Shown: positions 4,515-33,940 of the stretch, one piece after another | Numbering within the stretch: position 1 is the first letter of the stretch | How the letters are laid out: each line of letters opens with the position of its first letter | Made by a program: the position numbers and the translations under genes | Assembly: GCA_003568945.1 (NCBI GenBank) | Contig: BDIP01000071.1 | Location: forward strand, 1 to 34,096 | Source of the DNA: Kipferlia bialata | Taxonomy: Eukaryota | DNA length: 34,096 bases | Reading direction: 5' to 3' | Notes under the pieces: generated by a model | What the model was told of the DNA's origin: nothing | What the model saw: the letters and a program-made list of their open reading frames with translations, nothing else | The model's database searches: none

Positions 4515-4724
4515 CCCAATATATGTGTCAAGGTTGAAATATGCCGGTCTCATTTGTATCATCGATTCTTATGCTATATATGGTTGTCGATACGAAGTCA
4601 GATACACTCTCTCTGAATGATATATGGCCAGTATAGAGTATCACTGAATCCAACCCGTCTTTCCAAAGTGTTAATGGACTCGTTTATGGAGCATATATGA
4701 ATGTGAATGCAAAATTAGTATTGA

Positions 4725-4749
4725 TGAATACTGGGCTTCCCAGTATTCA
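4725..4749. other. Perfect 11-bp inverted repeat between convergent gene ends
   Basis: TGAATACTGGG-CTT-CCCAGTATTCA. Confidence 0.6.
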
Positions 4750-4809
4750 AGTATTGGTAACAACTGGCACTTGACGATATGAGAGAGACACATACTGTTC
4801 AGCTCCCTG

Positions 4810-7800: not shown

Positions 7801-10800
7801 GCATGCTCAACAGATGAGACACATAGACACACGTAAACACTGCTACACATGGATAGAACCACTAATTATCCCCAAACCTCAAGCTGATATACCCACACAG
7901 CCCCGATGTCGTCTGTGTGTGGAGAGTGCACCACTAGCCACCCCGCATCCATATCCAGGGCACTGCCAAATGCTGCCCCGCCGTCTAGTGAGGTACTGGC
8001 AACCCACGTGTTGGTGGCTGAGTCCAGAGCATATACGAGCACCCTCCCATTTCCACTGTTGTTTGTACCAATGGCCAGGATTCTGGTGTAAGTAGAGGGT
8101 CCAACAAACAAATGAGTCACTAGGGGACCGAGTCAACGTATCGTACCCACTATCGATCACAATGCAGTAGACAACCGAACTGGCGACACTGATCTCCTGC
8201 TTGATTGACCAAGTGTACTCTCTGTGGAACAGATACAGACTGGAATCCGTCTGAGCGGCTATCCAGTCACCATCAACAGCGACAATGGACCCGAAATTGG
8301 CAGAACCGGAGGGAACCGGGAGTGACTCTGAAGGTTAGCACCATCTAGAGACTGCAACAGTTACATTATTGGGATCCGTACCTCCGTTCCCAAGAGTACC
8401 ACTGGCCAACACCTCCATCGCCATGACCACATTGGCATCGGGACACCCTAGCACAGCACTGGGGCCGGACACGTCAACAGAGGCTATAGTAGTAGTGACT
8501 CCAGTAATGGTCTCCACACTATAGCTGCCAGTCACACTGTCCCATGTGTATGTGTAGATTTCGCTGTCAGTGGCAGGGTTGGCTACATATACAGCGACAA
8601 CAATACCTGACAGTAAGACTAACAATTCCAGCCCAAATCCAACCAGAGAGAATATGAGAAGATATGTATATATACGAACTCACCACTGTCAGCAGCTAGC
8701 AGAGTGTTGGTCAGGGCGGAGTCGGAGGGTGCGGTGAAAGGGTCACTGGCCACTATCTGTCTGGAAAGATACGGATACTCAACCCCAGAGACAGTGATAC
8801 CGATGGAAAGACTAAGATCGTTGAGGGGACTATCTGCGGACCCAAAGAGCTCCATTGTATAGGAACCAGCCGTCAAAGGGGCAACCAGACTCACACTACA
8901 CTCCCCTCCTGGACTGCAACTAACAGCAAAGTTGCACTCGTTAAAGGTTACATATACTGGAGTGTAGCAGTCCACGATATTAGATATGAGAGCGCCAGAC
9001 CCATCTCGCAGCCGAAGCCTGAGGTCCTGGACCTCCCTGGTGGCCAGGGTCTGGGTGGAAACACTGATAGATGCTGGGATACTCGGAGAGAGAGTGGGAA
9101 GTGTAGAGTGGTACACATATGCACCCCCAACACCCGAGTTCAGACCAGTGTGTCCCACCACAACCCCGTGCTCTCCAAGGGCGACCCAGGCGGGGTTTGA
9201 ACCAGCGGCAGGAGTCAGGCTGGCGACCAGCTCCCAGTGTGCGCTCCAGTCTTGGAATGCGTATACATACACTGCCTCATTGCAGCCAACAGCAACGGTG
9301 GATCCATGCAGTGCCACCCGAACACCCTTTTGGAGCGGAAGGCGCTCCTGCTCCGCCCAAAGGGTACCATCAAATGCATACATGATGACATACAGACAGT
9401 AGCTGAAAGCGTATGTCACAGCACATACACCATGGCCTGCGGACATATCCAGAGATATATCATGGTGTCCCCCATTGTAGTTGAACCGGTAATCAAAGTC
9501 TGGCTGGCTTATATGCCAGTCGGTCTTCGATACATCCCACATCATATGCGAATTCCGGCTAATGTATGCCAGCCAATCACCACTCAGCGACACCTGAGTA
9601 TCAGATGGAGAGCCCCAGGCGTGTAAATGTAGGAAATATATACAACTTACCTTCGCATCATAGCCTGAGGTGCAGGAACCACTGTATGGGGAGGTGACAA
9701 GTATGACCTCGCCCCAGGCACCTGTGTCCGGATCCCTCTCACTGTAGAGTAACTTGTTTTGAGCTGTCATGGCCAGTCGGTCCCCAGATAGACTGAGGTA
9801 ACTGCCTGCACCCACGCCTCCTATGCTAGAGGTGGTAACCACAGTGCCGTTGGCCTCGTCAATGGACCAGACACCACCAGACTGAGTATATACCCACACA
9901 GCCCCTCTGCCATCGGTTCCATCCACCTACGAGTTAGACGCACCGCCTTGAAGAGAGATAGAATCAGAAGGAGTGTCAGTAGCAGTCTCTGTATAAGAAT
10001 ACCTGAGCTCTAGAGGCAGAAATGGCCATGCTGTCCCCAGAGATAGACACCCGGAAACCGAAGAACAGGTTGGTCCCACTGAATACAGCATTGGAAGGGG
10101 GCAGAATCTGGGAATGGTACTGGTATAGCCCGGTAGTGGAGTCCCGCAGGTACATATACACACACCCGGCGTTGGAATTGTTTCTGTAAGTGAGATAATG
10201 ATTCTATCGCTATCAACAACCATGGGGGTATTCAATTCCTCATTGTGCTAGATATCTAACACTGGTATGAACGATGTCATTGGAGAAAGAGATGACTCAC
10301 TTGTATGCTCCGACCGCTAGCCAGTCTCCATCAAGGTCAACACATATGCCAACCTGGGTGAGATGCGAGTGATACGGTAGAGAATGAATAATGGAGAGAG
10401 TATTGCGACACTAAAGTGAACATACCCCATCGACAGTCGTAGAGGGTTCAAGAACCATAGGGGGACTGAACAGGTCTTCTTCGAACCCAACAAGCTCCTC
10501 TGAGTGCTGGGTCCCTGGCACTGATGCATTATAGAGATATAGGGGGCTCGGATGGTTTCTGTCAATGGTCAGTATACCGTCTCCAGTCACAGAGACAAGG
10601 GAATGGCACCCAGCAGTCAGTGTGCTTGGGGTCTGGAGGGAGAGCTGGGGTACCCATGTACTCAGATTGTGACTATACACCGAGACATATGATCCCTGCC
10701 CAAGAGCCAGGGTAGAGCCAAGAATCGAGACACTCAGTCCCCCAACCCCAGGTATATGAGTCTCATGTTGCCATTTGCGACCAGAAAGGACATATACCAC

Positions 10801-13800
10801 AGCATCACTGTCCACGGCAGTACCATCCACAGCTATGGCCAGACGACCAGACGACGCATCCAGACTGACGGAGCAGCTGTAGCTTGAGGCACTGACCCCA
10901 GCGCCAAGGCCATGCTCGATGGCCTGGTACGGGGCTGCTTCCCAGCCTTCGTTAGAGGTAAGATAGAGGTAGAGGTAGTCTGGTGCCATCACCACAACCC
11001 AGTCCCCGCCAGCGGCCACAACCTCCCGTCCAATAGTGAACTGGTCTGTATGGGGCTCTGGCAGCTCTGTGACAGCACCCCAAGACTGGCCCGACAGTGT
11101 CTGAGTGTACACGGCCCCAGCTGCCGCAGCAACCATGGTGGTATTGGAGAGAGCAAGGTTGAGTCCAAAGAAGGTGACACCACCAGACACATCAGTGGGG
11201 AGGGATTGGGTGCTGAATGAGAATCCGGACACCCCCATCTGGAAGAGACTCACTGCCCCGATAAAGTGCTCACCACCCACTTGTGCATTCGGCAGTCCTA
11301 CTGCCACCCAGTTGCCACACACAGCAACACTATAGCCAAACAACAGAATATCCATGGTGGTATAGGAAGAGACGTCAGCTGTCCTAGGTGTCAGCTCCTG
11401 GAATTGATCATAGGAGCCATCTGCCTGTCTTCGGTAGACAATTGTACTGCCCCTCCAGGAGTCAGTCGACGTTGACCCTACAACCATCCACTGACCGTCA
11501 TATCCTATGCTGTATGCATCTGAAATGCTGCTGACTACAAGGGCTGGAGTCTCTGACACCAGAGATATGGAGTCATACATGATCGGTAGGTGGAAGGGGA
11601 ATGCATATACGGCACCACCACCACCACCATTGGTATCTAGCAAAGGAACACCAGCAAATAGGCCCCGTTCTCCCATATGTAGGCTAGAGAGACCCCAAGT
11701 CATCACCAAATCCTGACTCCTCAGCTCCACCCACCCCGACTCCTGACAGTAGTATACTGTGACATCAGAGTCTGTACCCACCGCAAGATAGTCATCGTAC
11801 AGGGACACACCGGAAACACCACTGTGTGGGAGCACTGCCTCCTGAACCCACACTCCACCGGTACTGAGTTGCCATACATGAACATTCACCCCTTCCTCTG
11901 ATGTAGCTGCAACACGGCCCCTTCCACTGTTCATGCAGATGGAGACAGAGAGAGACCCCATGTCCCAAAGAGTCTCAGTCTGGGTAGGAGCATGAAGGTG
12001 CCAGTCAGTGAAGCTCAGTGCGTAGAAGTGGAGGTGTGAGTATGTCACGATGACGGCCCAATCTCCATCCATGGCTATTTGGGGAGGGGTGGTCCCAAGA
12101 ACTGCAGCACTGGGTGGCACTATCTCAACCACTTCTGCCCACCCGTCTGAGTCGTAGTGGGTGTACAAGACACAACCACAACCAGTCAGTAGCATATCAT
12201 TCCCTGAGAGGGATACCTCCATACCAACCAATGAATACTCATTGGAAATGGAAACCTTCTCCTCCTCCTCCCAAGAACCACTGGCATTAAGTGCGTATGT
12301 GAACACTGCTCCAGACGAATGCGTTTGATCCTGAGAGTAAGACCAAGGCAACAGGTTTGAGTAGTACCCACAAAGTGAAATATATATAACAATAGCTTGG
12401 TCGTAGTACCTGTGTCTCATGGATGGCACCAATGGCGATTCTGTTGCCTGAAATGGAAACAGACGACCCAAAGGACAGGTTGCCTGTGCTGGTGGCAGAT
12501 AGGGGGCTGGATAGGGTCTGGACGTGATCGTATGTCCCAGAGGCGTTGGCTTCCAGAATATACACGGTCCCAGAGTCGGTGGTCGTGGCGTTCGCTGAAA
12601 TGACCACAAGAGTACCCTGAGAGTCAACTGCACGACCAAACTCGGCCGCCTCGGCTAGTCCTCCCAAGTCTTCGACGAGATAGGGCTGTGCTGCCACTGT
12701 CTCCCAAGGGGTAGGGGCATCGGTGGGTCCGGAGTACGGCAGAGACACGTTATACACCCAGACGCCACCGGTGGTAGACATGCCATCATATGGGCTGGAG
12801 AGATAGAGGTCGTTCTGGCTGAGCACAAGACCCCCAATACCCCATGTTAGAGCAACACTCTTGTCAGTAAGGTAGTCCCAGTAAGGATACACGGTACTCG
12901 AGTAATCGTAGACCCAGAAGCCATCATCCTCAGCTAAAACAAGATAGTCGCCGTATAGAGCAGCCCTCTTCACATTGGTCCAGTCTGTGACAGCCAGGTC
13001 AGACTCCCAGGCCCAGAGACCGTCAGACAGTGAGTAGGTCACAGGTTGATGGGCGTAAGATCCCACAACTACCCTCCCTCCTCCGCTATGTGCATCCATA
13101 GTGATATAGAACTCCACCGCACCCCACGTATTTGTCTGGGTGTGTGAGGGGACCTTGTACCATCCCGGATAAGTGAGGTCGTAGAAGAAGAGAGCATTGT
13201 AACCAAGGATGACCAGCCAGTTTCCCGACATCGCGAACTCCGTATAGTTCCAGGCGTCAGTGACCTAGACAGTAAGACATCTCATGAGACTAGGATGGGG
13301 ATAACACTTGAGAACACTATACTAACGTACCGGGACTGGGAGCTCAACAACCTCTTGCCAGGCCCCGCCTCTATACGTGGATGCAAAGACACGGGCCGTC
13401 AGACACCCAATTACCATAACATCCCCAGACATTGAGAGCTTACTTCCAAACTGAGTACTTGCCGCAGTGCCAGTGGGTGGTAGCACCTTCGCTTCGTACA
13501 CCCACCCTGCACCAGTAAGGGTGTATGTGTATACAGCACCAACTGCGTCTAGCCCGTCAATAGTCTCAGCAATCGCTGCAACCGCCATCCTGTCTCCAGA
13601 CAAGGCAATAGTATTACCGTAGAGAAGCATAGTTGTTCCTGCACCGTCGTCGTAGGCAATACTCTCAGCAGGGGGTGTCAGGGAAGACGTAAGGACGTAG
13701 GTTCCATCCAGCTCCCGCTCATAAATGAATACAGCACCCCTGTCTGCCACCCCAGTAGCCCCGACTATCATCCACTCCCCATCTGCAGCGAGGGCACTTG

Positions 13801-16800
13801 CAGCTGTGCTGTCTGGCTGATAAGGTCCATATCCCGACAGCCGATCCGCAATATCAGCACTACGTGTGGACCCAGCATATCCAATCTGAGTGGTAGAGTA
13901 GGCATACACCCCTCCAGCAGAACCCAGCTCAGTATCTCCGATGAACATCCCGTATTCACCAAGCCCTAGAGAAGACGCACCATCTCTTACGAGGGTGTGG
14001 ATATGCTCCCAAGTGCTGTCACTGTACTCATACACAACCACATTGGCGGCTGTAGCGACAGCCATCACACTTCCGTAAAGAGCAATACTGGTGGGACTGA
14101 CACTAGAGAGCTCAGCCTCAAGGACCCATACTCCATCTTGAAAGGAGTATACATGGGTAGAGGTGGCTGCCGTGTCAGACCCAAACACCAGTCTCCCAGT
14201 CCCGCTATACCCATCCAGAGAAAGACATGTAAGTGCCCCAAATGAGTGTGACACGATCACAGGCACAGTGTTCCACCACTCGGTCTGTGACATATCATAC
14301 ACCATGACATCGTCTGACCCTGTCACAGCAAAGAGGTCCCCACTTGCAGACAGCCTACTGTTGGGTGTGAAGGGGCTAGCGATGCTGAGGGGAGGGAACA
14401 CCACTCTGGCACCGGTCCAGGCACCTGCCAGGTTGTATGCATAGAGAGGTACATCATCCACTCCTGTCTGTCCACTCAAGACGAGAAGAGTACCATTGTC
14501 ACAGAGGGCGATATGCGATCCAAACATCCTATCAGCTACGACGACACTCTCCTCAATCATCTCGGTAAACACCCAGTCTGTGCCATCGAAGGAGTATGTG
14601 AACACTGAACCTGCAAGACTACCGGAGTCGGAGTATTCTGGGGCTCCCACAGCAAGTCTGATGTCAGATAGGATTCACTATTGTAGATGGGCATACGAAA
14701 CGTTAGCATACCTAGTTCCAGCAACAGCAACAGAATGGCCAAAGAGGCCTGCTGACACAGAAGGGAGGACCGACTGGAAGAACCCCCAAGACAGGTCATC
14801 TTGTCGTCTATATATGTAAACCTGGTATTAGTTGCTTTAGATACTATACTACAAGTATGAAACAATGTGGTATATACGGGGTATGGTGTATATTCAAATG
14901 AGGAAACGTACATGACATCCGGTATTGAGTCCCGGGAGGCCCACCACCATCCACTCCCCAGATACAGAGACAGAGGCACCAGCCAGAGCATCGGCCGTAC
15001 TGCTAGGCAGCAGGACAGAGGGAACAGCAGACACTTCGGACAACAGAGTGACGGCACCATACACTGGGAGAGACACGAGGAAGGCGCGAATGCCACCCGT
15101 ACTTGTGCCCATACCCGATCCGCCAACAAATATCCCATGCTGAGAAAGGGACAGAGAAGTGCACGAGCCGTTAGTGCTTGGTTCCTTCAGTGAGATAGAA
15201 CGCACGAGACATAATACATAACAAAATGAATGGTATATGTCATGTTCACAAATATACCTGTACATCAAGGAGGGTCCAGCCTGACTCCTGGGAGTGTGTG
15301 TATATGTCTATCCTGCTAGACGACCCTAGTACTAGAGTAGAGCCGTACAGTGCCACTCGTTCCGATGGCCCTGTCGGCGTTATAGTGGACTCTGCCATCC
15401 AGCCGGTGCTATCTAGGTATATCACATACACGTCCCCTCCCTCCACCCCATAGACTACACGGCCAGTGCCAGACAACATGTCAACGGCGGCATACGGCGC
15501 CTTGTCACCGCCAGCGGATGTGGAGAGGCCGTGAGCATTGCTACTAGATGGTGTCAGGTGCCAATCAGTAGCATCTTGGGGTGAACTCATATGGGCAAAT
15601 ATGAACACCTACAACTGCGAAAATATATCCTCTGACCATACCTAAGTGGTACATAAACATGATGTCAGGCGCAAACACAAACGCCCAGCTCTCGCTGACT
15701 GCCACCTGATATGAATACCGTGTGTTCAAAGATACATTCTAAAACATAAAGCATACCTTTGCATCTGCCACACTGGTTTGTAGTAGGGCTGGGGTGTCCC
15801 ATACTCCATCTGTGTCAACTGTGGAGAAGTAGACATCCCCGGTCAAGGATGTAATGAAGACGTATCCCAGATCAGCCTAAAGTGAGCACACCATTTCTTT
15901 AGAGAACCATCAACAAAGGTGTGTCAAGTGCACTCTATCATGGAGCAGAAGACAGTATCTCTGAGGTATCATAGTCACTAAGACTTAACACAGAAGCACA
16001 CATACCTGTACTGCCACGTCATGTCCGAATTCCATTCCAGCTGTGGAGGTAGGGGGCAGTAGTTTACCGTCCTCAACCCACTCTGTTCCCTCTAACCTGC
16101 AATGGGTATACAGAGGTATGTAAGGGAAACTGTTGAAAGGATAGAAGATGAGTACCTATACATGTACACAGCCCCCACAGAGGAGAGCCCCCCTACGTGT
16201 TCAAGGGTGGTTCCAACAGCCAGAAGGTCCTTGTGCACATGCACAGCAATACCAAAGCGAAGGTCTGTAGTGCCAGACGGGAGAGCAGACGCAGGAGGGG
16301 AGATTGACTGGTAGAGGGATAGCACCCAGGACTCAGACACTGTGTCGTATACAGAGCGGTAAACATACACCATTCCGTTGTTGGATCCCACCCCATACGA
16401 CCCTACTACCACCCAGTCCCCATAAGAAGAGGAAGCATGTGCACTGTAGGTGTTGGCACCTGCATTAGCCTGGTAGAATGAAAAATATAGGACACATATA
16501 CAGAGAGTGTATGTAAAGCATCCACATCTGCTTGTCACTGACAGTGATTACGTGTTTGATTACAAACCTTGCACTGGCTGGTACAGAGTAGACCCCTTCC
16601 TTATCTCGCTGAGAAGGTTGACAGGACCTGAGAATGAGTACATAGCTAAGAACTGTTGCGAGGACCCTACAAGAGCCTCACCTGAGTAGGGAAGATCCGC
16701 GTTGACCACATACACACCACCATAGTTGGAGCTGGCACCACCAACGTACCGTGATGCTAAGGTGAGACCATAACTGTTGATAGGAAATAGTTGTGACAAG

Positions 16801-18293
16801 TGGGAAGATATAAGGCCAGAAATTCTTAAGACCTTAGAGTCTTCACATACCCATAAAGATACCGCTCTCAGAGACTGCCATAGAGGCCATGTCTCCGTTT
16901 TGGTTGACACTGATAGTCCCAACCTGTCGTTAGTGAGTACAATACACTTCAGAGAGAACTCATGTGCATGGTGGTGATATAAAAATGATCTCTTAAATAA
17001 TAGAGGCTTATCGGTAACTATGACGCTGCAGACGGGCTGAGAGCAGTGACTCAATGCACTCACCACACTTGAGGTAGCATCTGCCAGAGAGTACACCGAC
17101 ACCCAGTCGTTCTCCCCAATGGCAAGGATGCTCCCGTAGAGCCCGGCCTGTAATCAGATAGAGAGAGAGTCTGATCTAAACAAAGTATACTTGGGCCTCC
17201 TACCCACTCACCTGGCGCCCATTTGCGTTCACGATGTAGTAGTCGAAGACCCAACCACTGTCAGTCAGTGAGTACACGTTGAGACCGTCATTGACGGCCT
17301 CTCTTGTCCCAAGCACAACACGCCCTATGGGTTAGGGACGGGCACACCTTCTAACAGTCGTGACAGTCATTACGAGTGACACTCAACGATAATCAAAAGT
17401 GTCACTGTAGGTGTCTGACCATAAGAACTCCCATCACATACCTATGTCCCCACTATACATGTCCAGAGCACAGTAACTGTCAGTGGTGCCAAATGCGTGG
17501 TTGATACTCCTGGGGTGAATATACAAGCTTTTATATTAATTATACAAGGTCTAGTGTGCATATAACCTATATGTACTGTATGTGTATATGACATCAGGAG
17601 ACCCTCTGGATGATGACATCCGGCAGAAGAAGAAGAGTAGAGTGCATATCAGAGGTACGTACGCGACAGGGGCTGTGGTCTGAACGGGCTGGACATCCAA
17701 CTCATACAGATAGAGGTTGTCTGTGCACATTGTGGCCACCCAGACTGTCCCACCTGCACTGGTGCTGATCGAGGTACCAGCACCATTCCACTGTGCCCCA
17801 GCAGGGGCGTCTATAGAGACGGGGGCTCCCCAGGTGGACCTATGTAAGAGTACTATATAGGGACCGTACCTGTTATGTTGTGTTATGTAGTGTGAGCACA
17901 TGGGACAAACACTTGGGGTAGATATCTCAACACATACCCAGAGTAGAGGGATATCCACATCCCAATCACGCCACTATAGTCGTCCCTACAGACAATGCCG
18001 GTCTCTGTGAGGGAGATCGTCTTGCCGAAGTACTGAGAGGCCGTAGTCGTGGAGGGCTTGACAAGGCTGTGGAACCCCCAGTCTGGTATGAATGGGTGGT
18101 GTATGGATATGATGTATGGATATGACACAGGTGATACTCATACTGCGACTAACGATGTATATCTACTAGGAGGAGTTAGGAACAGTCGGACATCCACTCT
18201 CTCACCTGTCCCAACCAGACTATACATGGCCACTACACCGGAGTATGACTTCCCAGACACGGAGCAGTAGGGACAACCAATGGCTAGCCATCC
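4810..18293 (-). CDS. Giant multi-exon FG-GAP/integrin-alpha-like beta-propeller repeat protein with Ig-like segments; 5' end uncertain
   Basis: Recurrent FG-x-SV-x-SG-x-x-L-A-VGA-P...GAVY motifs across ORFs 8619-9926, 10411-12639, 12287-13231, 13322-14650 and others. Frame changes checked are explained by short GT-AG introns (e.g. HETQ|DQTHSSGAVF near 12410-12331). About nine propeller-like modules; beta-rich 'APxTxGxYT' Ig-like segments near 9070-8780, 7450-7130 and 5400-4870. Confidence 0.85.
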
Positions 18294-18372
18294 CTGCACA
18301 TCAGAGAGTGCAAGAGGGTACACGTATTAAGAACAGGTAGGTGAATATAGAGAGGGATAACAAGTGCACAGC

Positions 18373-18418: not shown

Positions 18419-18549
18419 TATTGGAAGAGAGACGGGGGGGATGGAAGGGGAATAGTAGAGAGGGGGAGGGGGGGTAGAGGGTACCTCGACGGTGCTGACA
18501 AAATGAGAGAGAGAGAGAGAGAGAGAGAAAGGGGAGAGAGAGGGGGTAC

Positions 18550-19225
18550 CTCGAGGGTGTTGACGCAGTGCTTGAGCTCGGAGGGGGTGGGCTCAATTTC
18601 GGCCAGGTCCTCCTCGATGTTCTGGGGGAGGGACATGTGCATCTGGGAGAGGGCCTGGAGGGCGGAGAAGGTGAAGGACACCTTGTCCTGGGGTGAGTGG
18701 GAGATTCATACATACATACATACATACGTTAACCCACACTGATTACCATATTGAACAACCCAGTTAATACCTCCAGACTCTCGCTGGCAAGCTCCTCAAC
18801 GTCGTCCAGCTGCTGCAGGGTCACAAACTCAGTGAAGGTGGCGAGTCCCTGGGCAACGGGCACGGAGGCGTTGAGGAAGTGGGCGAGGGCAGAGGTGACA
18901 TCGGAGTCAAACAGGGTGGAGCAGTCGCTCTCCTTGTTGTTGAAGTCAACGTCAGACTCGATGTTCTGCTGGCTGCAGAACTCCCTGAAGAAGGCCAGGA
19001 CGAACCTTGACTCCTTCAAGAACTGGTTGCCGGTCTCAGAGAGCACGAGCACATTCCTAGAGTGAGGTAAAACTAGTCCTTTCATAAGTGAACAGCTAAC
19101 CCGAGTAAAAACTGCTTCCAGCATCCCCAAAGCTCTAGCATGTTTACTGTATCGACGTACTTGGTGAGCGCTGCCTGACTCATTGTGATGTGGCACGAAA
19201 AGTCAACATCTCTGGTGTATGACAT
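18550..19225 (-). CDS. 5' exons of an unidentified alpha-helical protein
   Basis: Exons 19225(or 19183)-19161, 19056-18771, 18687-18550 splice in frame: MSQAALTK|NVLVLSETGNQFLKESRFVLAFFREFC...LASESLE|DKVSFTFSALQALSQMH...CVNTLE. Strong GC3 codon bias. Confidence 0.7.
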
Positions 19226-21451: not shown

Positions 21452-23678
21452 TTAAAGGTCATCGTTACTAACCATCTCCCTCTCCCTCTCTCCCTCCCCA
21501 TCACCAAAGAGTACACTCTGGTCAAAGGGCCATAGGGAGTATGTGAGGCGGCGATCCTTCCCGGTTTCATCGGCCTCTCTCTCTCTCTCCTGTGCATGTG
21601 AGGGTATAGCTGCACCCTTCTTAGGTGTTGTGTCCCTCCCTGACCCCTCTTGACTGGTAGTCTCCCATAGTCCAGTGTTGACGGCCCCTGTCAGGCCGAT
21701 GTCCTCAACCTCCTGGGGGGTGAGACAATATAGTAAATATATTTTATTGTATATATATGTAAGTGTGAATACTGCGTGAGTATTATCAATACTCATCCGT
21801 TCATGCGCTATGGTACAACTTCTCACCTGCATCTGTGTGCATACATTGACAATGGAGGGTCTAAAGTGCTCAGCCTCGCCAGATATACTGGGTGTGAGAC
21901 AAACACATATACGTACTTGAATACGAGAATTCCATTTATGGATATGTGCAAACATAAGTTGTACCTAAATAGCTGTCCGTCCACACACACATATATATAC
22001 GCATTCAAACTACACACACACACATATATATATATCTAACTGAGTAGCTGTCCGTCCAGTCCACATACCCTTATTAACTACATACATCCTTTGTATACAT
22101 ACCTAAACATCTGTCCGTCCAGCCTACTCAGGTAGTAGTAGTGTCTGTAGCTATATATATATACATATACATTATATCTACATAACATACTATGTATATA
22201 TATACTCTATATACCATATCTACCTAAACAGCTGTCCGTCCAGTCTACTCAGGTGTTTACTCCGTCGCCGTTCTGTGCTCTCAACCACAGCATAGTCTGA
22301 GGGTCAGGAGAGAGAGGTAACAAATATATAAGGAATAATATAGTATATATATATACAATAGATATCTCAACCACAGCATAGTCTGAGGGTCAGAAGGTAG
22401 AGATCACAAATCTATTTAGAATAATACAGTATATATATAAATCAGTATACAATAGACATCTCAACCACAGCATAGTCTGAGGGTCAGAAGAGGCACATAA
22501 CTATATAGTCAAACACACCATCCACCAATATTAAACATTGCACATATGTATGTATATATATTAGTATCTACTATATATATACTTATGTATATATATTAGT
22601 ATCTACTGATGTACATACATCCATACCTATACTCCTCAGTGTTGGTATCTCTGACACTGCATGCACCCTCATCAGTCTGCTCAATACATATGTATATACA
22701 TACACATATGTATATAGATATATATATATATATATAGGTATACATATATATTCATATATACATATATGAGTGTTGATAACATATATATGTCATATACCTA
22801 TACTTCTAAGAGTGGGTATCTCTGACACTGCATGCACCCTCATCAGTCTGCTCAGTCTCTGCTGGGTGAAGGTGTCGGGATAGCCTGATGGTTAATAGAT
22901 CACTATATACACATATACATGGATATACTAGTATATGCATATGGGAATAGTATGCTCAGTCTCTGCTGGGTGAAGGTGTCGGGGTAGCCTGATGGTTAAG
23001 CATATATAATGATATATATATATATATATATACTCATATATGTCGATATACTAGTCCATGCATATAAGAATAATATGCTAAGTTTCTGCTGGGTGAAGAT
23101 GTCTGGGTAGCCTGAGGTCAAGAGAATACACCATAGTCAGGTCCTTGACTACACATGTATACACTTGGATAGTACATATATATATGCCCCTACCTGGGTT
23201 ACCAAGAGCACAATACTAACAATTATATCCATGGAAATGCTAGGGTGGATATGTATGTCCCTACCTGGGTTACCAATAAGACACAGTGTCCTCAGAGACG
23301 GGAAGGACTCCCTGGGGGTAAGACATAGTGTAAATATGTGATAATACTGTATATATACATATATGCGACCAATAGAATGAAGTATAGTGGCCTCAGAGAC
23401 GGGAAGGACTCCTTGGTATGAGCTACAACTAAATATAGAAATATACTAAATTTAACAGAGAGGTGTAGACCCAAGGTAGAAACATGATGTATGTCTGATA
23501 TTCTGTTCTCGCTAACTGGTGCAAAATAGATTTCATAAGGATACTAGTAATTATACTATATGCATACCTATTCTTGTGCAGGAACTGTGCGATGTCTGAT
23601 ATCCTGTTCTGGTTGAGGGACAGATACTGCAGGGCAGGACAAGGAGGGAAGACGGTGTCTTCACTATATGTTAGAGGG

Positions 23679-23726
<48 letters not shown>

Positions 23727-23957
23727 CTGCAGGGAAGGGGCAGGGGGGGAACACCGTATCCTCACTATATGTGAGAGGGGAGAGAGAGAGATGTAGTGCA
23801 TGGGAAATCATTGTGTCTTCACCAGGTGTGAGACTCATACGCAGTGGAATAGAGAGAGCGAGAGAGACCGACCGATACTTAATTCTGTTATGGTGCAGTT
23901 CCAGCCTGTGCAGCATGGGATAATATCAGACACCTCACACACACTGGGTAGTTCAGT

Positions 23958-24000
<43 letters not shown>

Positions 24001-25051
24001 AATATATAGTATTATTATACAACAATACATAATCCTGTTGTGGTCCAGTTCCAGTGTGTGCAGCATTGTGAAGTAGAACGAGTATTCTATTACAATACAA
24101 ATATATACCCATATATATACCATACATATATACATATATATACCTAATTCTGTTATGGTCCAGTTCCAGTGTGTGCAGCATGGGGTAGAGGGACAGCGCA
24201 CTGACATCGCTGGGGGTTAGAGAGAGACATATCAAATATTGATCATGGTAAGATAGAACTAGCATCGCTAGGTTTAAGATGATAGAGATAGATACCTGAT
24301 GTAGTTCCTAGGCACCTGTATGACCCATTCAATAATACAATATCCAACTGTAGCATACATATATTGGTATATTATTCAATTGTCTAATGACTTAGTATTT
24401 AACATATATGCATATATACGTATTCATCTATATACCCATACCTGATGTGGTTCCTGGGCACCTGTATGACACAGATGGAGGGGTCAATGTCATCTGGGAT
24501 ACGGCTCAGGTTGGCCTGGGATGAGAAGAGAGAGTTAGATAGAGAGAGAGAGAGAGATGGAGACTATGAGGAAGAGAGAGAGAGAGAGAGAGAGTCATCT
24601 GGGATACGGGTCAGGTGACCTGGGGTGAGAGGGAGGAGACCAAATATAAGGGGGCATAGAGAGAGACAGAGAGAGGGAACTCAGGTTGATATGACATATG
24701 ATATATATGATGACAGGAGAGAGAGAATGACCCAGTCGAAAGTGAGAGAGACACAATGGAGTTAGCTACTACCATCAAGTACATAATCAAACCAGCATAA
24801 CGAGGGTGACTAATAGGGAGACAGAGGGAGAGAGTGTACAATGAGTCACAATGGAGGTTCCTCCTGGAGGACGGAGGGGGGGGGAGGGGGTATGGTAATC
24901 GAACACTAGTATCAAACCACTAATACAACCATCGTGAAAGTAGATACGGCATGGGACCCACCTCCATGGCACAGTACGGTGGTAGCATCTTGGCACTCTC
25001 TCTCTCTCTCTCTCTCTCCGGCGCACCATCCCTCTTCGCCCTCTCCGCCAT
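21452..25051 (-). CDS. LRMDA (C10orf11)-like short leucine-rich-repeat protein, about 10 exons; first exons uncertain
   Basis: Spliced: ...NLSRIPDDIDPSICVIQVPRNHI|SDVSALSLYPMLHTLELDHNRI|SEDTVFPPCPALQYLSLNQNRISDIAQFLHKN|..ESFPSLRTLCLIGNP|GYPDTF...RVHAVSEIPTLRSI|DYAVVESTERRRS... ending MVSNDDL*. LRR plus LRR-cap layout and an acidic 'xxDDL' C-terminus as in LRMDA. Confidence 0.75.
21962..24630 (-). repeat. Intronic partial copies ('echoes') of exon edges of the LRMDA-like gene
   Basis: Examples at ~21962, 22040, 22101, 22366, 22460, 22627-22683, 22955, 23078, 23191, 23391, 23491, 23721-23767, 23878, 24033, 24294 and 24594. Confidence 0.92.
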
Positions 25052-25300
25052 ACTCACTCTCCCCTACACTCTCCTACACTCCTTCTCTACCACCAGGGCT
25101 CTGCTATCTCAGTAACGAACCGGATACGTCACAATAGGCCCCTATGTTGAAGACAAGTCACTCAGAGCCTGAGTCAGATGAACTCACACCTACACCCTTG
25201 ATTCCATACAGAGTTTTTGTCTATTATATACCCTCAATTTCAAAAACTACGAGACCGATGCGACCAACATTGACCAGTGTGGCTCCTTACTATTGACACA

Positions 25301-25874
25301 ATGCGTGCTGGTCTTGTTATTGTGCTGGTGCTGTGTGCCTGGTGTCTGGCAGAGAGCTTCCTGTCCTTCGCTGACGTCGAGGGGAACCTGAAGAGCGATT
25401 CGTGCGTGCTGAACAAGTAAGTATTACAACTGATGATAACGTACTATATATGCTTAGTGACATGGGAGTAAACTCGCAGAGAGTCTTTCAATGATGACGG
25501 ATATATGCATGGCAGAGATATAGTCTTTTGGGAGTGGGGTTGCTGTTCCCCTGCTCCGCTGCGATACCAGTGTGATTGAGTGCGGCATTTGAGATTATTC
25601 AGAGAATTGTTGCCATTCTGATCACCGAGACCATGTATAGCAATTCAACCCTTCCAATAATCTCTCTCTTGCTTGAGGACCACTGGTGTGTCTCACTCAC
25701 TATCTCTGCACTCTCTTACTATTATCCTCTCTGCACATCTAAGTCTCTCTGTTATATCTATGTATATATACAAATTTCTATATATATATGTCAATCCCTT
25801 ACCCTCAGGACCACTGGCAAGTGCGATGGACACTGCAGCAACTCACTAGAGGGATGCACTGAGGTACTCTTAGT

Positions 25875-25908
<34 letters not shown>

Positions 25909-28900
25909 CGACATATGTGTCCCGGCCACTCTCCCCTGGGTATACTCTACCCGCTCACCCCAGTACAAGCCTGGCCACTGTGGGTGCAAGGAGTGCAGCT
26001 ATGACTACGGGACAGGTATACATATATATGTATATATATGTGTATATATGTATATAAGTTAGTATAGATAGATAGATGGATGTGTATATATGTGTTATAG
26101 TGCTAGTGCAGCTATGATTACGGGACAGGTATCAACACACACACATATATATATACAATTATATATATATATATATATATACTTTATATATAATCATACG
26201 TCTACACGGTGTGTTTATATGTACTATGGGTGCAAGAAGTGCAGCTATTATGACTATGGAACAGGTAACACATATAATGGATGTCTTTGCATGTCCCTCT
26301 TCTGACTCAAATAGTGCCACTGTGTACTATTACTCGACACTCATACTCATTGTGACTTGGTCGTATTTCATGTGTGTATAGAGTACCCCATACTCACTCC
26401 CCAGGTGACTGCAACAGTGCCGGGTGCTACCAGGCCGGCATGACATGGTGCATGTACACGGGGAATGAGAAGTGCGAGTGCTCAGGTATAACATGCATAT
26501 GTATGGTATATGTATACATATATGTATATGTATATATATACATAGTATGGCATGACATGGTGCATGTACACAGGCAATGAGAAGTGTGCCTGTTCAGGTA
26601 GTATATACATCTATATATGTATATATAAATATATATATACATAGTATGGCATGACATGGTGCATGTACACAGGGAATGAGAAGTGTGAATGCTCAGGTAA
26701 TGAATGCATATGTGTACAATGAATGCATATATTGTATGATATGGATATCCTCTCTTAGTAAGAGACTCTTACCAGGCTGTGCATGGGCCGACTCGTCCAC
26801 GGACATGTACAGTCTCTTTACTTATACTCTCTCTCTCTCTCTCTCTCTAGTAGAGACTCTACATATATATATATATATGTATCCTCACTCTCTAGGCTGT
26901 GCCTGGGCCAACTCTTCCAAGGACACGTCTATCTCTACAGTTTACTAATTCACTATGAATAGAGTATATATAGATATATCCCCTTATCAATCAGGCTGTG
27001 CCTGGGCTGATTCTTCCAAGGACAGGTGCTTCGGGGCATGCTCCAACTCACTGTGCTTCCAGAAGGGACCCGCAAGTACGTAATGGTTTTCATATCTCCC
27101 TACATATGCATGACTATGTTACATAGTATGTACATATACCATCCAACACCAGGTGACTGCCACTGCAACCAGGACAAGTGCTCCTGGGATTATGCATCGG
27201 AGCAGTGCGTGGTACGTGTATATATGAACACACATATATATAATGTGATCATAGTTATGTATATGCCACATCATGGATACTCGTGGGACTATGCATCGGA
27301 GCAGTGCGAGGTACGTCTCTCTCTCTCTCTCTAACTCTACTATCTATTCCTCTATTTCATCCCCAGGTTGTCTGTGACAAGTATGGACATATGTGGATTG
27401 AGAAGTTGCTCTACATTATACATGTATACTATATACATATTATTCCGCCATTCACCCCTAGGGTGCCTGTGACAAGTATGGCCACCAGCTCTGTGTGCAG
27501 ACAGCCAAGTACGTCATACTATATGTACATACGTGTATACAACGCTGTGTGCATGAATGCGTTTGTCGTATGTTGCTTACATATGTAAAGACTGTTTCTC
27601 ACTATATCTTTCTCATATAGGTACACTCCTGGCTGTGACATCACCCCTCTCTCTCAGCCTGTATATGCTATTCTGCTGTCATATACTCCTCACCTGCACC
27701 TGCTCCAGCTGTGACTCTCTCTCTCTTGCTGTCTCGACATAAGTATGTGTATGTATGTGTCCATACACTCACCCCAGTGCCACCTGCACCTGTTCCAGCT
27801 GTTACTCTCTCTCTCTTTCTGTCTCGACATAAGTATGTACATGTATGTGTCCATACACTCACCCCAGTGCCACCTGCACATGCTCCAGCTGTGACTACGA
27901 TGTGGCCCTCAAGCAGTGCATGTGTACGTAGTATGCTGTCCACAGTATAGTCCATCAATTTCTACAATCCATAACCTGTTATTCCGGATGTACGGTGTGA
28001 CTGCGATGTGGCACTGAAGCAGTGCCTATACTAGTGGATATACGCTCTATCTTTCTCTCCTACATATGTGTGTATAGCACATGAACTCTACACTCACCCC
28101 AGCCCCTGTGTATGGCTGCACCTCAGGGCGCATCTCCATCCTGTCCTTATATCTCTGTACAATCTCCTCTTATACTCTTTCAGTGTCTATAACTCAATGT
28201 TTTACTAACCCCAGCCCCTGTGTATGGCTGCACCCCCCAGGGGTCTAGTGTGGACCACGGTGGATGCTACGCACCAAGGGCAGACGGAGAGTGCTCGGTA
28301 TGTAGATATCATTATATATATACTAGTATATATATATACTAGTATATAAGAGAGGGTGTGTTATGGGTTATACTACATGTGTGGTATGACATGCACCAAG
28401 GGTAGACGGAGAGTGCTCGGTATGTGGAGTTTATAGTATGTAGTACATTCTATGTACATGTAGATGGAGACACTATCGTAATATCCTGGTGGTACTTCGT
28501 GTATGATATGCACCAAAGGCAGGTGGGGAGTACTCGGTTAGTAGATATACGCTCTCGCTCTCTCTCGCTCTCTCTCTCTACACCCCTAATCCCAGTGTAC
28601 CACGGACTCCTGTTTCTATGATCATGTCCACAAGAAGTGCATATCACCTGGGTTCGGTTGCCCAGGTATCTAGTTACATATATAAACATATGTGAGTTGA
28701 GGTGCCCAGGTACTCTAAGACTATGTCTCTCTCTGTCCCTTACAATATATATGTCCCACTTTCGTTGATTTCTCAAATATTGAACAATGTTGTGTACCTG
28801 GGTGCCCAGGAAGCAATTCCCTAGTTGTTCTCGTAGTATCGTCAGCATATATATCCATCTCTTAGAGATTCTAACAATAGATATGTTCAGTGTATATTTC

Positions 28901-29439
28901 CCACGATGTGAGTGGTAATTTTGTGTATATGTATAAATACTATATGATATAGTATGATACAATTAGTATCCCTTCTCCCTCTGCTACACTCTCACCCCAG
29001 TCACTGATGAGTGTCGTCTCTCACTCACTACATGGCTGATGAGTATATATCTGCTGGATGTGTCTATGCATATCCTCCATATCTCTCTCAGTAGTATATT
29101 TTCACACCTTTTGTAGTATATATGTAGTATATATGTAGTGTATAGTATACATGACATATGTATTGCTCTCACCCTAGGGACTGAGGAGTGCGTCTATGCG
29201 TCCTCCCTATCTCTCTCAGTAGTATATAGAGTATATATTATATACATTATATAGTATATATTCTCTTGTCTCACACTCTCACCCTAGGCACTGAGGAGTG
29301 CGTATATGCGTCCTCCCCATCTCTCTCAGTAGTATATATAGTATATATTATATACATTATATAGTATATACTATATTCTCTCACCCTAGGCACTGAGGAG
29401 TGCGTGCTGTCAAGCCCAGGGAAGTGCAGGTGCAAGTGA
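25301..29439 (+). CDS. Secreted cysteine-rich protein (~249 aa, 11 exons) with six 6-Cys repeats
   Basis: Signal peptide MRAGLVIVLVLCAWCLA. All exon phases join. Repeats follow C-x8-9-C-x3-6-C-x4-11-C-x7-8-C-x-C. TGA at 29437-29439. Confidence 0.88.
26104..29305 (+). repeat. Intronic exon-edge echoes of the Cys-rich gene
   Basis: Donor echoes at ~26104, 26228, 26548, 26647, 27280, 27996, 28393, 28510, 28701 and 28801. Acceptor echoes at ~26771, 26892, 27361, 27691, 27772, 28097, 28995, 29172 and 29282. Confidence 0.92.
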
Positions 29440-29791
29440 TGCATAGTCCATACACGTGATGGTAGTCAAGAGAAACAGCGTCAAAGCATTGAAATGAGAT
29501 TGTTTAGACATGCCACACTGACGTTGCCAATGGAAGTGGGGGAGGCAAACAATACTGTGGGAATGCAGAGTACCTATAAATTGTTAATAGATTAATCGTA
29601 ATTACAACCATCCAATGGTTACCAGTGTTATCACGCCCATAAACTTGTAAGCGTATGAATCGTAAACTGATTGTAAGCCACTTCTTTGTATTCGTCCTCA
29701 CTTGCGAGGCTCGTTAATCACTCAGAAGACATTTCTGAGTGAGGAATCAAATCTACGACAAGTGAAAATGTTCTATTCAGCAAATTGACGT

Positions 29792-32700
29792 TGACTTCTT
29801 TGGTATGCCGTATGGTGGATTGGGCACCCTTCTCAAACGATCACAAGTATTATCGAGTTATTCATACTCGACGTGTGTAACTGTTCTATTGAATACACAT
29901 TCACTTCTTTGGGATGCCGTATGGTGGGTAGGGCATGCCTCGCAGGGTGGCCCAGTAGGCAGGCTGGGGTGAGTACATTGCATATTGCAGTAATGTATGT
30001 GATATATAGAGCAGTATTATAATGTTGGCTATGCCTCTGAGAGTGGCCCAGTAGCAGGCTGGAGTAGGTGGAGATACTAGAAGGAGCTTAGTGTATAGTA
30101 GGATACACACTGTCGCATATTGGTGATTGATATACAGTGTTATATATATATAACACCATACCGCGTGGTCACTAGAGTATACTTGATACTATACATTATA
30201 GTATCCATGTATCATACCGGGTGGTCACAGCAGAAGGGAGTAGGCTTAGAATATGATAAGGAATAGATGGTTACTATCAATAGTCGCTTTGGTATCCAAT
30301 AGTATTAGAATATATATTAGGGAGTGTTCTTTATAGTATGCATGTACCATACCGGGTGGTCACAGCAGAAGGGAGTAGTAGGCTTAGAATATGATATGGA
30401 GTAGGTAGTATTTATCTATAGTTGTTCTGGTATCCAATGGTATCAGATATATATCTATACACGGTAGTATTAAGTACCATACCGGGTGGTCACAGGCCTC
30501 ATCTAATTGCAAATAGCTGTCCTATACATATATATATATATACATGTACCATACCGGATGGTCACAGCAGAAGGGCGTGGCTGCTCTGCTGTAGATGCTC
30601 AGACCGGCACTCTCTGGGGTAGGTAATACAGAAAGCGTTTCTATTGCAAGAGTCTTCCTGCAAAAGTCTTGCAGTAAATGTGTATGATGAGTACGTATGT
30701 GTACTATTGTATCTGTACCTACGTGGCGATTTCTATTGCAGTATATGTGGATTATGTCATGGTGTACACTGCATCTCTACCTACAAAGTCCAGTGTGGCC
30801 AACATCAGCTCGTTGTCCTTCCTCTGGTGGTAGGCAACTGGGGTTGAGAGACTGCCACAGAGAGGGTATCTGTCTCAGTACTATGAAACATACTAAACAC
30901 ACAATCTCCATTGGTAGTAATACTTGATCCCTACCTGCCTTGTCCAGAGCCCTCATACAATCACAGTATCCTTCCACAAGACAATGCATAATAGAGATGT
31001 GGGTGCAATGTTACATTACTAATGAATATTACACTATGACTCCATACCTGCCTTGTCCAGTGCCCTCTCCAGCTTGGATACCATTCACGATACTCTTATG
31101 TATATTACGTATACTAATAGTATACGTATACTAATAGTATACTAATAGTATTACTATTCACATATAACACTAGTTACTCCAGTGTCCCTACCTGCCTTGT
31201 CCAGTGCCCTCTCTAGCTTGGGGTCATAGACAGGCCTAGGGGTTAGAGGACCAAACAGATACAGAAACTGTACCGGGTTACAAGAATTGATCGGGACAGA
31301 GGGAGGAATACTCCATGATCATGACTCACTGCAGAGTTGTACGCACCTGCACCACAGGTCGCTTGAAGCATATATGAAATACATGTCATTGTATACATAC
31401 CTGCACCATAGGTCTGGCTCGTACACCTCTGGCAGGGGGTCCAGGGCACGGACAAGCCTAGGGGTGAGGAAGATGATGGAATAGATTCAATTGCTAGGTG
31501 TCAGCATGCACGGACAAGCCTAGGGGTGAGAAGAGTGAAACCACTATTCATAGTTGACATCCTGTCAAGCTTGGCTCAAGAATGACGTCTACTCTCTTAG
31601 ACTCTAACGAATTGAATAGAACACTCTATCCACAATACCTCATCTCCGACTCCTTCTTGGCTTGTACCATTCTGGAATGCACACTGGTCTGACTGGCACC
31701 TGGCAGTGAGGACTCAGCATAGTACAATACAGGGTACTAATATAGTTGTCAATGTTAGTATTGATGGACTCACCCTTTGCCACCCTGTGCAGTGAGGGTA
31801 TGTATGTATATAGTATACTAGGACAGTACGTTATAGTATGCCATCATTATATTGCTTTGGACTCACCCTTAGACACCCTTGGTCTCTCTCTCTTGGGGGC
31901 AGGGTACTCAGACTGGGGGTGAGAGAGAATAAAGCGAGCAGTAGTTTACTTACACTTTGAAGAAACTGCATATATATACCAAGGGGTAGGGTACTCACAC
32001 TGGGGGTGAGAGTGTCTCATAGTGAAGTACAACAAAAAGGCGTGATAGAGTATATAGAGCATACCTTTCGTGGTGTCTTTCTGTCCCTGCTCCGGGTCCT
32101 ACCTCCTGGAGTTCAGTGTCGTTATATGGTTGTATATGTCATAATATATTATCATTGCATATATATAGGACATGGTAGTATATGTAAGTGTACTATTTAT
32201 TAGATAATGCACCTGGTGTCTGTGGGGACTGAGCCCTGGACGAGGGCCTAGACGATGCCCTAGAAGTGGGTCTGGATGTTTGTCTCCTGGGTGCCTTGGG
32301 CAGACTGATGGGGGTGGGGGAGTATCTGGGGTTAGGGTACACATGTGTTGTGATATATACTCTTAGCACTCTTAGATAACGAACTTCATAGGATACTTAT
32401 GCAATATATGGGCCTTGAGCAGACTAACGGGGGTGGGGGAGTATCTGGGGTTAGTGTCGAAGCCTATATAGACTCACTGGTATTCTTCTTACATATATTG
32501 GGCGTTCATCACACTATAATGTAGTGTTCAATACACACACTAGAGTGAGTATGTGCCTAATGTGTATTCTCCATACCTGTCATGGAGGCCTGGTATTCTG
32601 ATGATGGGTGTGCCTGGGGTGACAAGAGAGGGGAAGAGGAGGGGAGAGATAGGGAAGAGGGAAAGTGTCCTTGCCAATGACTCATTGGCGAAGAATCATA

Positions 32701-33190
32701 TACATAAGTATGTATATATGACAGGTCATGAAATTTATTGGGGTCTGATGATGGGTGTGCCTGGGGTGAGAGATAGATGCGAGAAGAAGAAGATGTAGAT
32801 ATAGATATAGAAGCAACTGAAATGTAATATATATGTATATATAATAGCATATGGGGGCCTGATGATGGGTGTGCCTGGGGTGAAAAGGGAGAGAGATGGT
32901 TGGAAAGAGAGATATAGAGAAAATACTAGAAGCAGGTATCATATGTATTATCAATCATCACGTGTACATATGGTGACAGAGAGTGTATGTCACAACAGGG
33001 GTATAGGAAGAGAGACTGTGTGACGACAGGCAGAGATCAAGAGAGAGAGTATCTACTACTGCCCCGGTAGTCATAAGTGTATGTGGTGTGTGAGTGGAGG
33101 GATGGGGAGAGTGAGAGAGGGAGGGAGACAGAGAGAGTGAGAGAGGGAGAGCGTATGATATAGTACCTGGTGCACTGCCGGGCACTGACG
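29792..33190 (-). repeat. Exon-edge echoes of the Pro/Ser/Arg-rich gene, including one beyond the stop codon
   Basis: Copies at ~29792, 30031, 30160, 30216, 30351, 30481, 30933, 31047, 31344, 31508, 31770, 31990, 32414, 32744, 32860 and 33165. Confidence 0.9.
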
Positions 33191-33464
33191 CTGTCATGTT
33201 ATATTACTAATGTATACTACGTATTCACTATACTTGTGTATAGAGAGTATATGTATAATACCTGGAGCACTGCCGGGCACTGACCCTGTGGTGGCAGAGC
33301 CAGTAGGGAGGACAGGGGGCTAGGGGTCAGAGAGAGAAGGCAAGAATCTAATAATATCCACGGGGTCTATTGGTGATGCCATTTGTCACACAGACACACA
33401 CGCTGTCTGTAAAACAATGATCACTGTCAATACCACTGCATCATACCTTAGAACGCCCCTCCAT
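29901..33464 (-). CDS. Pro/Ser/Arg-rich hypothetical protein, about 12 short exons
   Basis: Phase-consistent splice: MEGRSK|PPVLPTGSATTGSVPGSAP|GTPIIRIPGLHDR|YSPTPISLPK...|...LVRALDPLPEVYEPDLWCR|PVYDPKLERALDKA|VAYHQRKDNELMLATLDFV|ESAGLSIYSRAATPFCCDHP|PAYWATLRGMPYPPYGIPKK*. Start uncertain; family not recognised. Confidence 0.72.
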
Positions 33465-33791: not shown

Positions 33792-33940
33792 ATGGGAGGG
33801 TCTCCAGAGCTAGAGATCAAGATTCTGCAGAACGACGGCGCCAATGAGTCCTTGCTGCATCTGCTGCTAGTGAAGAGCCTCTTCTGCAAGTCCCTGCCCA
33901 GGATGCCCAAGGACTACATCACAAGACTGGTCTTCGATCC
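33792..33940 (+). CDS. GCN5: Histone acetyltransferase GCN5, first HAT-domain exon (rest outside window)
   Basis: MGGSPELEIKILQNDGANESLLHLLLVKSLFCKSLPRMPKDYITRLVFDP followed by a GTACG donor. Matches the GCN5 hallmark NDG.......L..LK.IF.KQLP.MPKEYI.RLV.D. Confidence 0.92.

Follow-up and report, generated by a model that had tools for sequence, protein, structure and literature searches.

Genes and exon-edge copies at the locus

The window analysed here is a stretch of 34,096 nucleotides (nt) of contig BDIP01000071.1 from Kipferlia bialata, which is reported as a free-living fornicate with 124,912 introns (PMC5874029). The window is eukaryotic in character, with short exons and with introns in which branch point and acceptor are fused, an arrangement resembling the Giardia motif of PMC10711314. 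Three adjacent genes, A, B and C, lie between 21.4 and 33.5 kilobases (kb), and most of their introns contain "echoes", which we define as partial, tandem, direct copies of exon edges. The portions of the main text of PMC5874029 available to us make no mention of heterozygosity, ploidy or intron repeats. All results below refer to three genes in one assembly and a single haplotype.

The three genes were modelled by hand; all three models are open and every intron is GT-AG. The translation of gene B is identical at 249 of 249 amino acids to the public K. bialata hypothetical protein P0002, which therefore equals the echo-free model. Gene B has no Pfam match and falls in a Cys-rich family that has no name, in which 19 relatives share 30-48% identity with it. 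The leucine-rich repeat (LRR) label of gene A is a weak match under the Pfam cut-off. Intron 8 of gene A (21713-21826) is 114 nt long, stop-free and in frame, and its retention would give a longer protein.

To detect echoes, each exon was aligned to both neighbouring introns or to 400-nt flanks, with a local score of at least 12 as the cut-off; in a control with foreign introns this score was reached by 5 of 614 exon-intron pairs. The search returned 47 matches, two of which were dropped: a GA microsatellite and an LRR cross-match with the echo of a different exon. These two account for 4 silent and 9 replacement differences. The remaining 45 echoes are 12-57 nt long. The splice dinucleotide is kept in 37 of them (17 AG, 20 GT), and 21 of the 29 introns hold at least one. 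The automated count gave one to three echoes per edge and a maximum of four per intron, and copies shorter than the detection cut-off are also visible. The initial annotation of this DNA had claimed that most introns of these genes hold up to four edge copies, usually with the splice dinucleotide attached, and these counts bear it out. Forty-four echoes lie in adjacent introns and one lies past the stop codon of gene C, indicating that the process tracks coding edges and not splice sites alone. Echoes with a splice site span a median of 43% and a maximum of 75% of the exon, none carries both sites, and the median coding identity is 0.92. Intron length rises from a base of approximately 150 nt by about 106 nt with each echo (r = 0.74). 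Intron growth of the kind envisaged in the initial annotation can be measured in this way.

Silent differences between echoes and exons

Differences between echoes and exons are predominantly silent. The ratio of silent to replacement differences is 72:51 in untrimmed alignments (62:49 when only unique differences are counted) and 51:24 after trimming, the removal of ragged ends where the alignment enters foreign sequence (46:24 unique). Echoes differ from the exon at approximately 20-25% of silent sites and 3-5% of replacement sites, and the ratio of these proportions (pN/pS) for unique differences is 0.15-0.33, with upper limits that reach 0.48. A neutral copy would be expected to show a silent fraction of 0.22-0.30, and a neutral copy beside a fully constrained exon a fraction of 0.36-0.46, equivalent to a pN/pS of 0.5. 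Within one lineage this value is a floor, because only one of the two copies can work at once; a ratio below 0.5 implies that the copies worked side by side while diverging, as alleles or paralogs, or that selection acts on the echo.

Several lines of evidence indicate that the ratio lies below this floor. Zero-fold sites differ at 21 of 510 positions and fourfold sites at 25 of 120, a ratio of 0.20 (p = 0.0014 against 0.5). Simulations of duplication that passed through the whole pipeline, with the same detection and trimming, gave silent fractions of 0.37-0.41 and reached the observed fraction in at most 1 of 300 runs per setting, in six settings, trimmed or untrimmed, with or without the strongest echo. 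The silent fraction is 0.66 in the true frame, versus 0.07 and 0.24 in the shifted frames, and 17 of the 24 edges that are informative exceed the null. The silent lean is common to all three genes, though genes B and C are weak when taken alone (p up to 0.06). Comparison with a neutral copy beside a constrained exon had been proposed in the initial annotation, and the silent excess survives this stricter null. What it called a clear majority of synonymous differences amounts to 56-68%, according to the trimming applied, and the bias is confined to the true frame. All three of its quoted examples (IPTLRS, YTGNEKCECS and WATLRG) were found, but the WATLRG echo also has three replacement differences at its ragged end. 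Judging from these sequence counts, it is likely that the two copies were both functional alleles during their divergence.

Silent differences are found about as far from the splice site as replacement differences are (p = 0.79), and the scarcity of differences past 30 nt is owed largely to trimming. CpG decay was considered as a source of the silent bias and rejected: the excess stays when CpG sites are left out of the trimmed count (p 0.0005-0.0035), and CpG transitions account for 4 of 46 silent differences. CpG is depleted in the whole window, with observed/expected ratios of 0.34 in coding sequence, 0.37 in introns and 0.46 overall.

Table 1. Positions of genes A, B and C and of their echoes in the window
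Feature	Position	Strand	Remarks
Gene A, LRR protein	21452..24988	-	9 exons; echoes in 7 of 8 introns; open model
Gene A exons 1-5	24962-24988 (tentative), 24442-24515, 24144-24209, 23568-23663, 23265-23311	-	
Gene A exons 6-9	22798-22884, 22224-22296, 21827-21887, 21452-21712	-	
Two donor echoes of gene A exon 3 (24029-24073, 23879-23922)	23879..24073	-	
Most diverged echo: acceptor and first 49 nt, gene A exon 4	23715..23764	-	10 silent, 1 replacement
Two acceptor echoes of gene A exon 6	22949..23111	-	junction in common
Donor echo of gene A exon 6 (IPTLRS), 57 nt	22627..22683	-	4 silent differences, all beside the donor
Gene A exon 7 and its echoes: two at the acceptor, three on the donor side	21965..22476	-	
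Gene B, secreted-looking Cys-rich protein	25301..29439	+	11 exons; echoes in 7 of 10 introns
Two donor echoes of gene B exon 3	26105..26264	+	distal one with an in-frame 3-nt insertion
Gene B intron 4: two exon 4 donor echoes (YTGNEKCECS), then two exon 5 acceptor echoes	26549..26928	+	
Echoes of gene B exons 6, 7, 8, 9	27280..28536	+	
Two acceptor echoes of the last exon of gene B	29178..29303	+	entire unit, including intron part, aligns minisatellite-like
Gene B 3' untranslated region to poly(A) site	29440..29604	+	X2 contig with A-run behind 29604
Echo of the last exon of gene C, past the stop codon	29794..29835	-	no intron or splice site
Gene C, unknown protein	29901..33464	-	12 exons; echoes in 7 of 11 introns; open model
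Gene C intron 11: exon 11 donor echoes and WATLRG echo of exon 12	30024..30376	-	
Echoes of gene C exons 9, 8, 6, 4, 3, 2	30935..33194	-	

Splice signals, flanks and junctions

The splice signals of the echoes are strong. Compared with its own true site, an echo acceptor has about 2 of its 10 nt changed. Echo acceptors score 9.2 versus 8.9 for the true sites (background -9.8), and 12 of 17 equal or exceed the true site; echo donors score 1.9 versus 2.3 (background -0.8). Since the echo acceptors lie upstream and are as strong, choice of the innermost site pair would be required of the spliceosome, through exon definition or nested splicing. A reduced spliceosome that uses fused branch-point acceptors appears to skip full-strength acceptors upstream, which makes exon definition versus nested splicing testable.

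Use of an echo splice site would keep the frame in 13 of 37 cases, the rate expected by chance, and would leave it open in two; in the other 35 the protein would be broken. The idea that echoes are translated as alternative ends was rejected on this count. The two donor echoes that would leave an open frame, at gene C exon 8 (31347-31400) and gene B exon 6 (27212-27310), are candidates, as far as the reading frames tell, for rare alternative products.

Run X2, which we guess to be RNA, includes a 907-nt contig ending in 23 A behind position 29604. The modelled message of gene B from ATG to poly(A) site is 915 nt, and gene B exon words make up 0.069 of the searched stretch, compared with 0.07 reported for run X2. 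Message length and word share are indirect signs, consistent with echo-free splicing. Gene C is uncovered by X2 contigs, which is without bearing on its expression.

Had an echo arisen by simple duplication, the intron sequence past its splice site, the flank, should copy the true flank. The match is better than the 95th percentile of foreign introns for only 10 of 37 flanks. If 20% divergence is assumed, 28 of 37 score below the 5th percentile of the expectation; if 30% divergence and indels are assumed, the number drops to 4 of 37. Echo junctions join intron to mid-exon without long exact overlap. Where an edge has several echoes, the junctions are no more than 4 nt apart at 10 of 13 edges, about eight of which are visibly alike beyond the junction (by eye). 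These shared junctions indicate that most extra copies are existing units duplicated again and not new breaks, and they lend no support to a separate break for each echo. The proximal echo is nearer to the exon sequence than the distal one at six edges and farther at two, with five ties.

Assembly check

We compared the assembly with contigs of DNA run X1, the sole DNA run with this stretch and possibly the source of the assembly. Ninety-eight percent of sampled 31-mers from 24900-33400 are present in X1 contigs. The contig comparison covered 29440-33000, of which X1 contigs cover 30154-33000. A contig of 3,721 nt matches 30349-33000 with zero differences and zero gaps at a depth of 407 (the run's other loci range from 359 to 498), and the sole exact 31-nt repeat in the compared stretch has a depth of 900. 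Ten counted echoes fall entirely inside the span of this contig and are equal letter for letter. Because contigs drop variants, the comparison shows that the echoes are present and does not show that a second allele is lacking.

Known systems

The initial annotation did not recognise its route of intron growth as described, but the structure itself is known from amphioxus "mirages". Mirages are reported from Adh3, the globins BflGb6 and BflGb9, troponin C and PGBD5 as tandem direct copies of exon-intron boundaries in the adjacent intron, both 5' and 3', with the AG or GT; they are said not to disturb splicing, the number of copies varies among haplotypes or cells, and their mechanism is called unclear (PMC3087553, PMC3902484). 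In the units described there, alignments run whole-length (81-100%), whereas the intron parts of the Kipferlia echoes mostly do not align, and the echoes fill most introns of three adjacent genes in a unicellular protist. A hand count from supplement 4 of PMC3087553 gave 15 silent and 7 replacement unique differences between BflGb6 haplotype 1 mirages and the exon (p = 0.02 against 0.45, for one locus with related units). By eye, four of the five differences between the BflGb6 working alleles recur in haplotype 1 mirages. This hints at an allelic origin common to mirages and Kipferlia echoes, though retained ancestral states would look alike. A word search of the globin paper found no "synonymous", and searches of the open literature at abstract level, subscription journals excluded, gave no report that mirages have a silent bias or that Kipferlia has repeats of this kind. 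The echo structure is already known as mirages, and the tested pN/pS signature below 0.5 is the new part.

Intron 7 of human F7 is a 37-bp minisatellite in which, as would hold for the echoes, repeated functional donors stay silent, the most upstream one being chosen; its units are near-identical members of a variable-number tandem repeat and involve donors only (PMC1557585). First-come scanning of that kind cannot account for the skipped upstream acceptor echoes. Duplicated mutually exclusive exons are likewise tandem exon-derived copies with a silent bias, but they are whole exons with both splice sites, whereas an echo with a splice site takes in no more than 75% of the exon, and its use would destroy the frame. 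One-sided invasion, or synthesis-dependent strand annealing, resolved by end-joining leaves one homologous and one non-homologous junction, as is known from repair experiments. These are the junction types expected under the initial annotation's proposal of invasion inside the exon, copying into intron and end-joining, although metamonads are reported without canonical non-homologous end-joining (NHEJ). Mouse meiotic double cuts offer another likeness, in that breaks on two chromatids or homologues can be end-joined, between homologues too, and yield tandem duplications or haplotype switches once gap repair is aborted; those events measure hundreds of bp to kb, lie at hotspots, occur mostly in Atm mutants and have no link to exon edges in the text available (bioRxiv 10.1101/2020.06.23.168138).

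Proposed exchange between diverged alleles

The explanation we prefer, at a probability of roughly 0.5, is that recombination between strongly diverged homologues copied truncated exon edges, splice signals included, out of other working alleles, and that these edges now stand unused as echoes. Haplotypes would match only at the exons of 40-110 nt. A break repaired on the homologue would pair within an exon, and copying would run past the splice site into intron sequence of the other allele; resolution out of register would leave two allelic edges in tandem. Products that retain one whole innermost exon would be harmless and would persist. Unequal exchange between exon and echo would then multiply the units, keeping the first junction and bringing in fresh allelic edges, while the displaced echo would decay neutrally and accumulate most of the replacement differences. 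Differences in the GC-to-AT direction outnumber the reverse by 14:4 among replacement and 20:17 among silent differences, and the lean of the former fits working divergence followed by later decay. Dmc1 probably tolerates mismatches.

Metamonads are reported to lack NHEJ (PMC8516963), so any joining step would have to be alternative end-joining, and the exact repair route of the initial annotation is unproven. The same source, in the portions cited, states that fornicates have lost Rad51A, use two Dmc1 paralogs and keep meiotic genes, that metamonad sex or parasex has never been directly observed, and that a relative, Carpediemonas membranifera, is predicted to be haploid. Allelic echoes and a single haplotype in the reads would be compatible if the clone were haploid and outcrossing were rare. 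The data favour neither the displaced old edge nor the incoming copy as the source of the echo. The broader idea that echoes are former working edges agrees with the silent excess, the strong splice signals and the unalignable flanks, but neither a second allele nor a close paralog was found.

A ratio below 0.5 provides a simple sequence test, usable in any genome, that links mirages to exchange between working alleles; it matters because the origin of mirages was left unclear in the text of PMC3087553. If the reading is true, a single assembly holds evidence of outcrossing between very diverged metamonad strains, a trace of hidden sex. More tentatively, it is possible that exon edges in this protist turn over by recombination between hyperdiverged haplotypes that share only tiny exons, with introns archiving past alleles and cryptic outcrossing. 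Every exchange that resolved wrongly would put the edge and splice site of another allele in place and add a working version to the stack in the intron. Such a process would feed itself as allelic introns diverge further, and it would also explain mirages in highly polymorphic animals.

A number of results weigh against allelic exchange. Untrimmed differences set against the harshest analytic null are only marginal without the strongest echo (p = 0.11) or without CpG sites (p = 0.051). Echoes compared with one another differ by 15 silent and 12 replacement changes, which is above the neutral 0.29 (p = 0.003) but not above 0.45 (p = 0.18). The contrast in direction between replacement and silent differences is non-significant (p = 0.14), echo substitutions show no clear preference for conservative amino-acid changes (p = 0.14), echo residues are not clearly enriched for residues of homologues (7 of 11 versus 43%), and two echo replacements strike a near-invariant G and C. 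Detection by coding similarity inflates the contrast between coding parts and flanks, and TA-rich flanks slip in alignment. Outside confirmation exists for the model of gene B but not for those of genes A and C, and exon 1 of gene A is tentative.

The partner allele is also elusive. Across 30154-33000 the X1 contigs have no alternative letters and no joint at which an echo is bypassed, and they include no exon-sized fragment of a second haplotype; P0002 is the sole member of its own 90% cluster. The diverged partner must be historical or present in other isolates, and the allelic model requires a silent polymorphism of about 10-15%, as estimated from the zero-fold and fourfold counts. Finally, the echo-poor remainder of the window is not accounted for. 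Strong acceptor-like sites have a twin in 26 of 50 cases in 21.4-33.5 kb but in 0 of 47 elsewhere in the window, many of these 47 not being true acceptors; a survey of repeats found three pairs outside the block, two of them donor echoes by eye. Intron-rich genes outside the 12-kb block have shorter introns and almost no echoes.

Other explanations

A serious competitor, though in our view a doubtful one, holds that tandem duplication within the same allele came first, and that short conversion or crossing over with diverged alleles later overwrote the exon and sometimes the echo, with the flanks drifting meanwhile; the birth of an echo would then call for no special repair event. It accounts for the shared junctions, for diverged flanks beside young-looking coding parts, and for patchiness such as the four silent changes in the last five codons of an otherwise identical 57-nt echo; a few units also align over their entire length, as it expects. 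It fits the same counts nearly as well as direct exchange between alleles, which tells against the latter, and it too needs high diversity. Duplication predicts, however, that fresh units, identical in coding part and flank alike, should be common, whereas only 3 of 37 flanks reach or exceed the mean expected at 20% divergence, and the conversion would have to operate over homology of 12-57 nt.

It is unlikely that the echoes are neutral mirages whose silent bias comes from the exon's own evolution, from a faster silent rate in exons or from small numbers. Mirages are a known kind of repeat and the harshest untrimmed tests are marginal, but silent change in the exon alone cannot take the ratio under 0.5. 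Silent sites of the exon would have to change 2-3.6 times faster than those of the echo, yet the flanks are the faster part; CpG transitions contribute few of the silent differences, and the simulations reject a neutral origin.

Less probable again is weak purifying selection on the echoes themselves, exerted as contraction or conversion moves echo sequence and splice sites into working position. Under such selection the splice consensus and the codons would be preserved even as the flanks drift, and a second haplotype would not be needed. By reasoning, echoes that last to 20% silent divergence swap at no more than about 10 times the mutation rate, and at so low a rate selection works only at extreme diversity, which leads back to allelic models. 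The near-invariant residues broken in echoes also speak against it.

Donors that were paralogs, or a lost whole-genome duplicate, would yield a ratio below 0.5 as alleles do, and the 12-kb block with its many echoes, next to genes that have few, might have had a separate history; nonetheless we think such donors very unlikely. No close paralog of gene B was seen, its nearest relatives being the 30-48% identical proteins mentioned above (closer ones could hide in a 50% cluster), and a search with its exon 1 returned one protein, P0002 itself. No exon-sized second copy of gene C was found on the covered part, and several variants per edge would call for several paralogs for each of three unrelated genes. 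An assembly artefact, in which heterozygous or mixed-culture haplotypes were joined in tandem, would directly give allelic silent differences, and the sole DNA run may be the assembly's source, but the shared 31-mers, the difference-free match at locus-typical depth, the depth of the exact repeat and the junctions without long exact overlap make it extremely improbable.

Elsewhere in the window

Two single donor echoes lie outside the block. One, at 1023-1105 on the minus strand, is in a gene that looks TTLL-like, a label that we assume here; the other, at 18476-18564 on the minus strand in a gene near 18.5-19.2 kb, carries two conservative replacements (by eye). Between them, 4700-18300 on the minus strand holds long FG-GAP-like repeat genes with long exons and a weak Pfam match; a homologue search with the FG-GAP open reading frame returned one match at 29% identity. 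This stretch has few consensus acceptors, nearly no microsatellite and no echoes, and is a different sequence compartment.

The first exon of a GCN5-type histone acetyltransferase lies at 33792-33938 on the plus strand, divergent from the start of gene C. A homologue search with this exon gave no match. A metagenome scan with it found six loci at 53-62% identity with 0-1 fused-acceptor motifs each (L005 and L006 partly read), values which indicate that these loci are not a second strain. Locus L005, from another eukaryote, has by eye an intron at the same place in GCN5.

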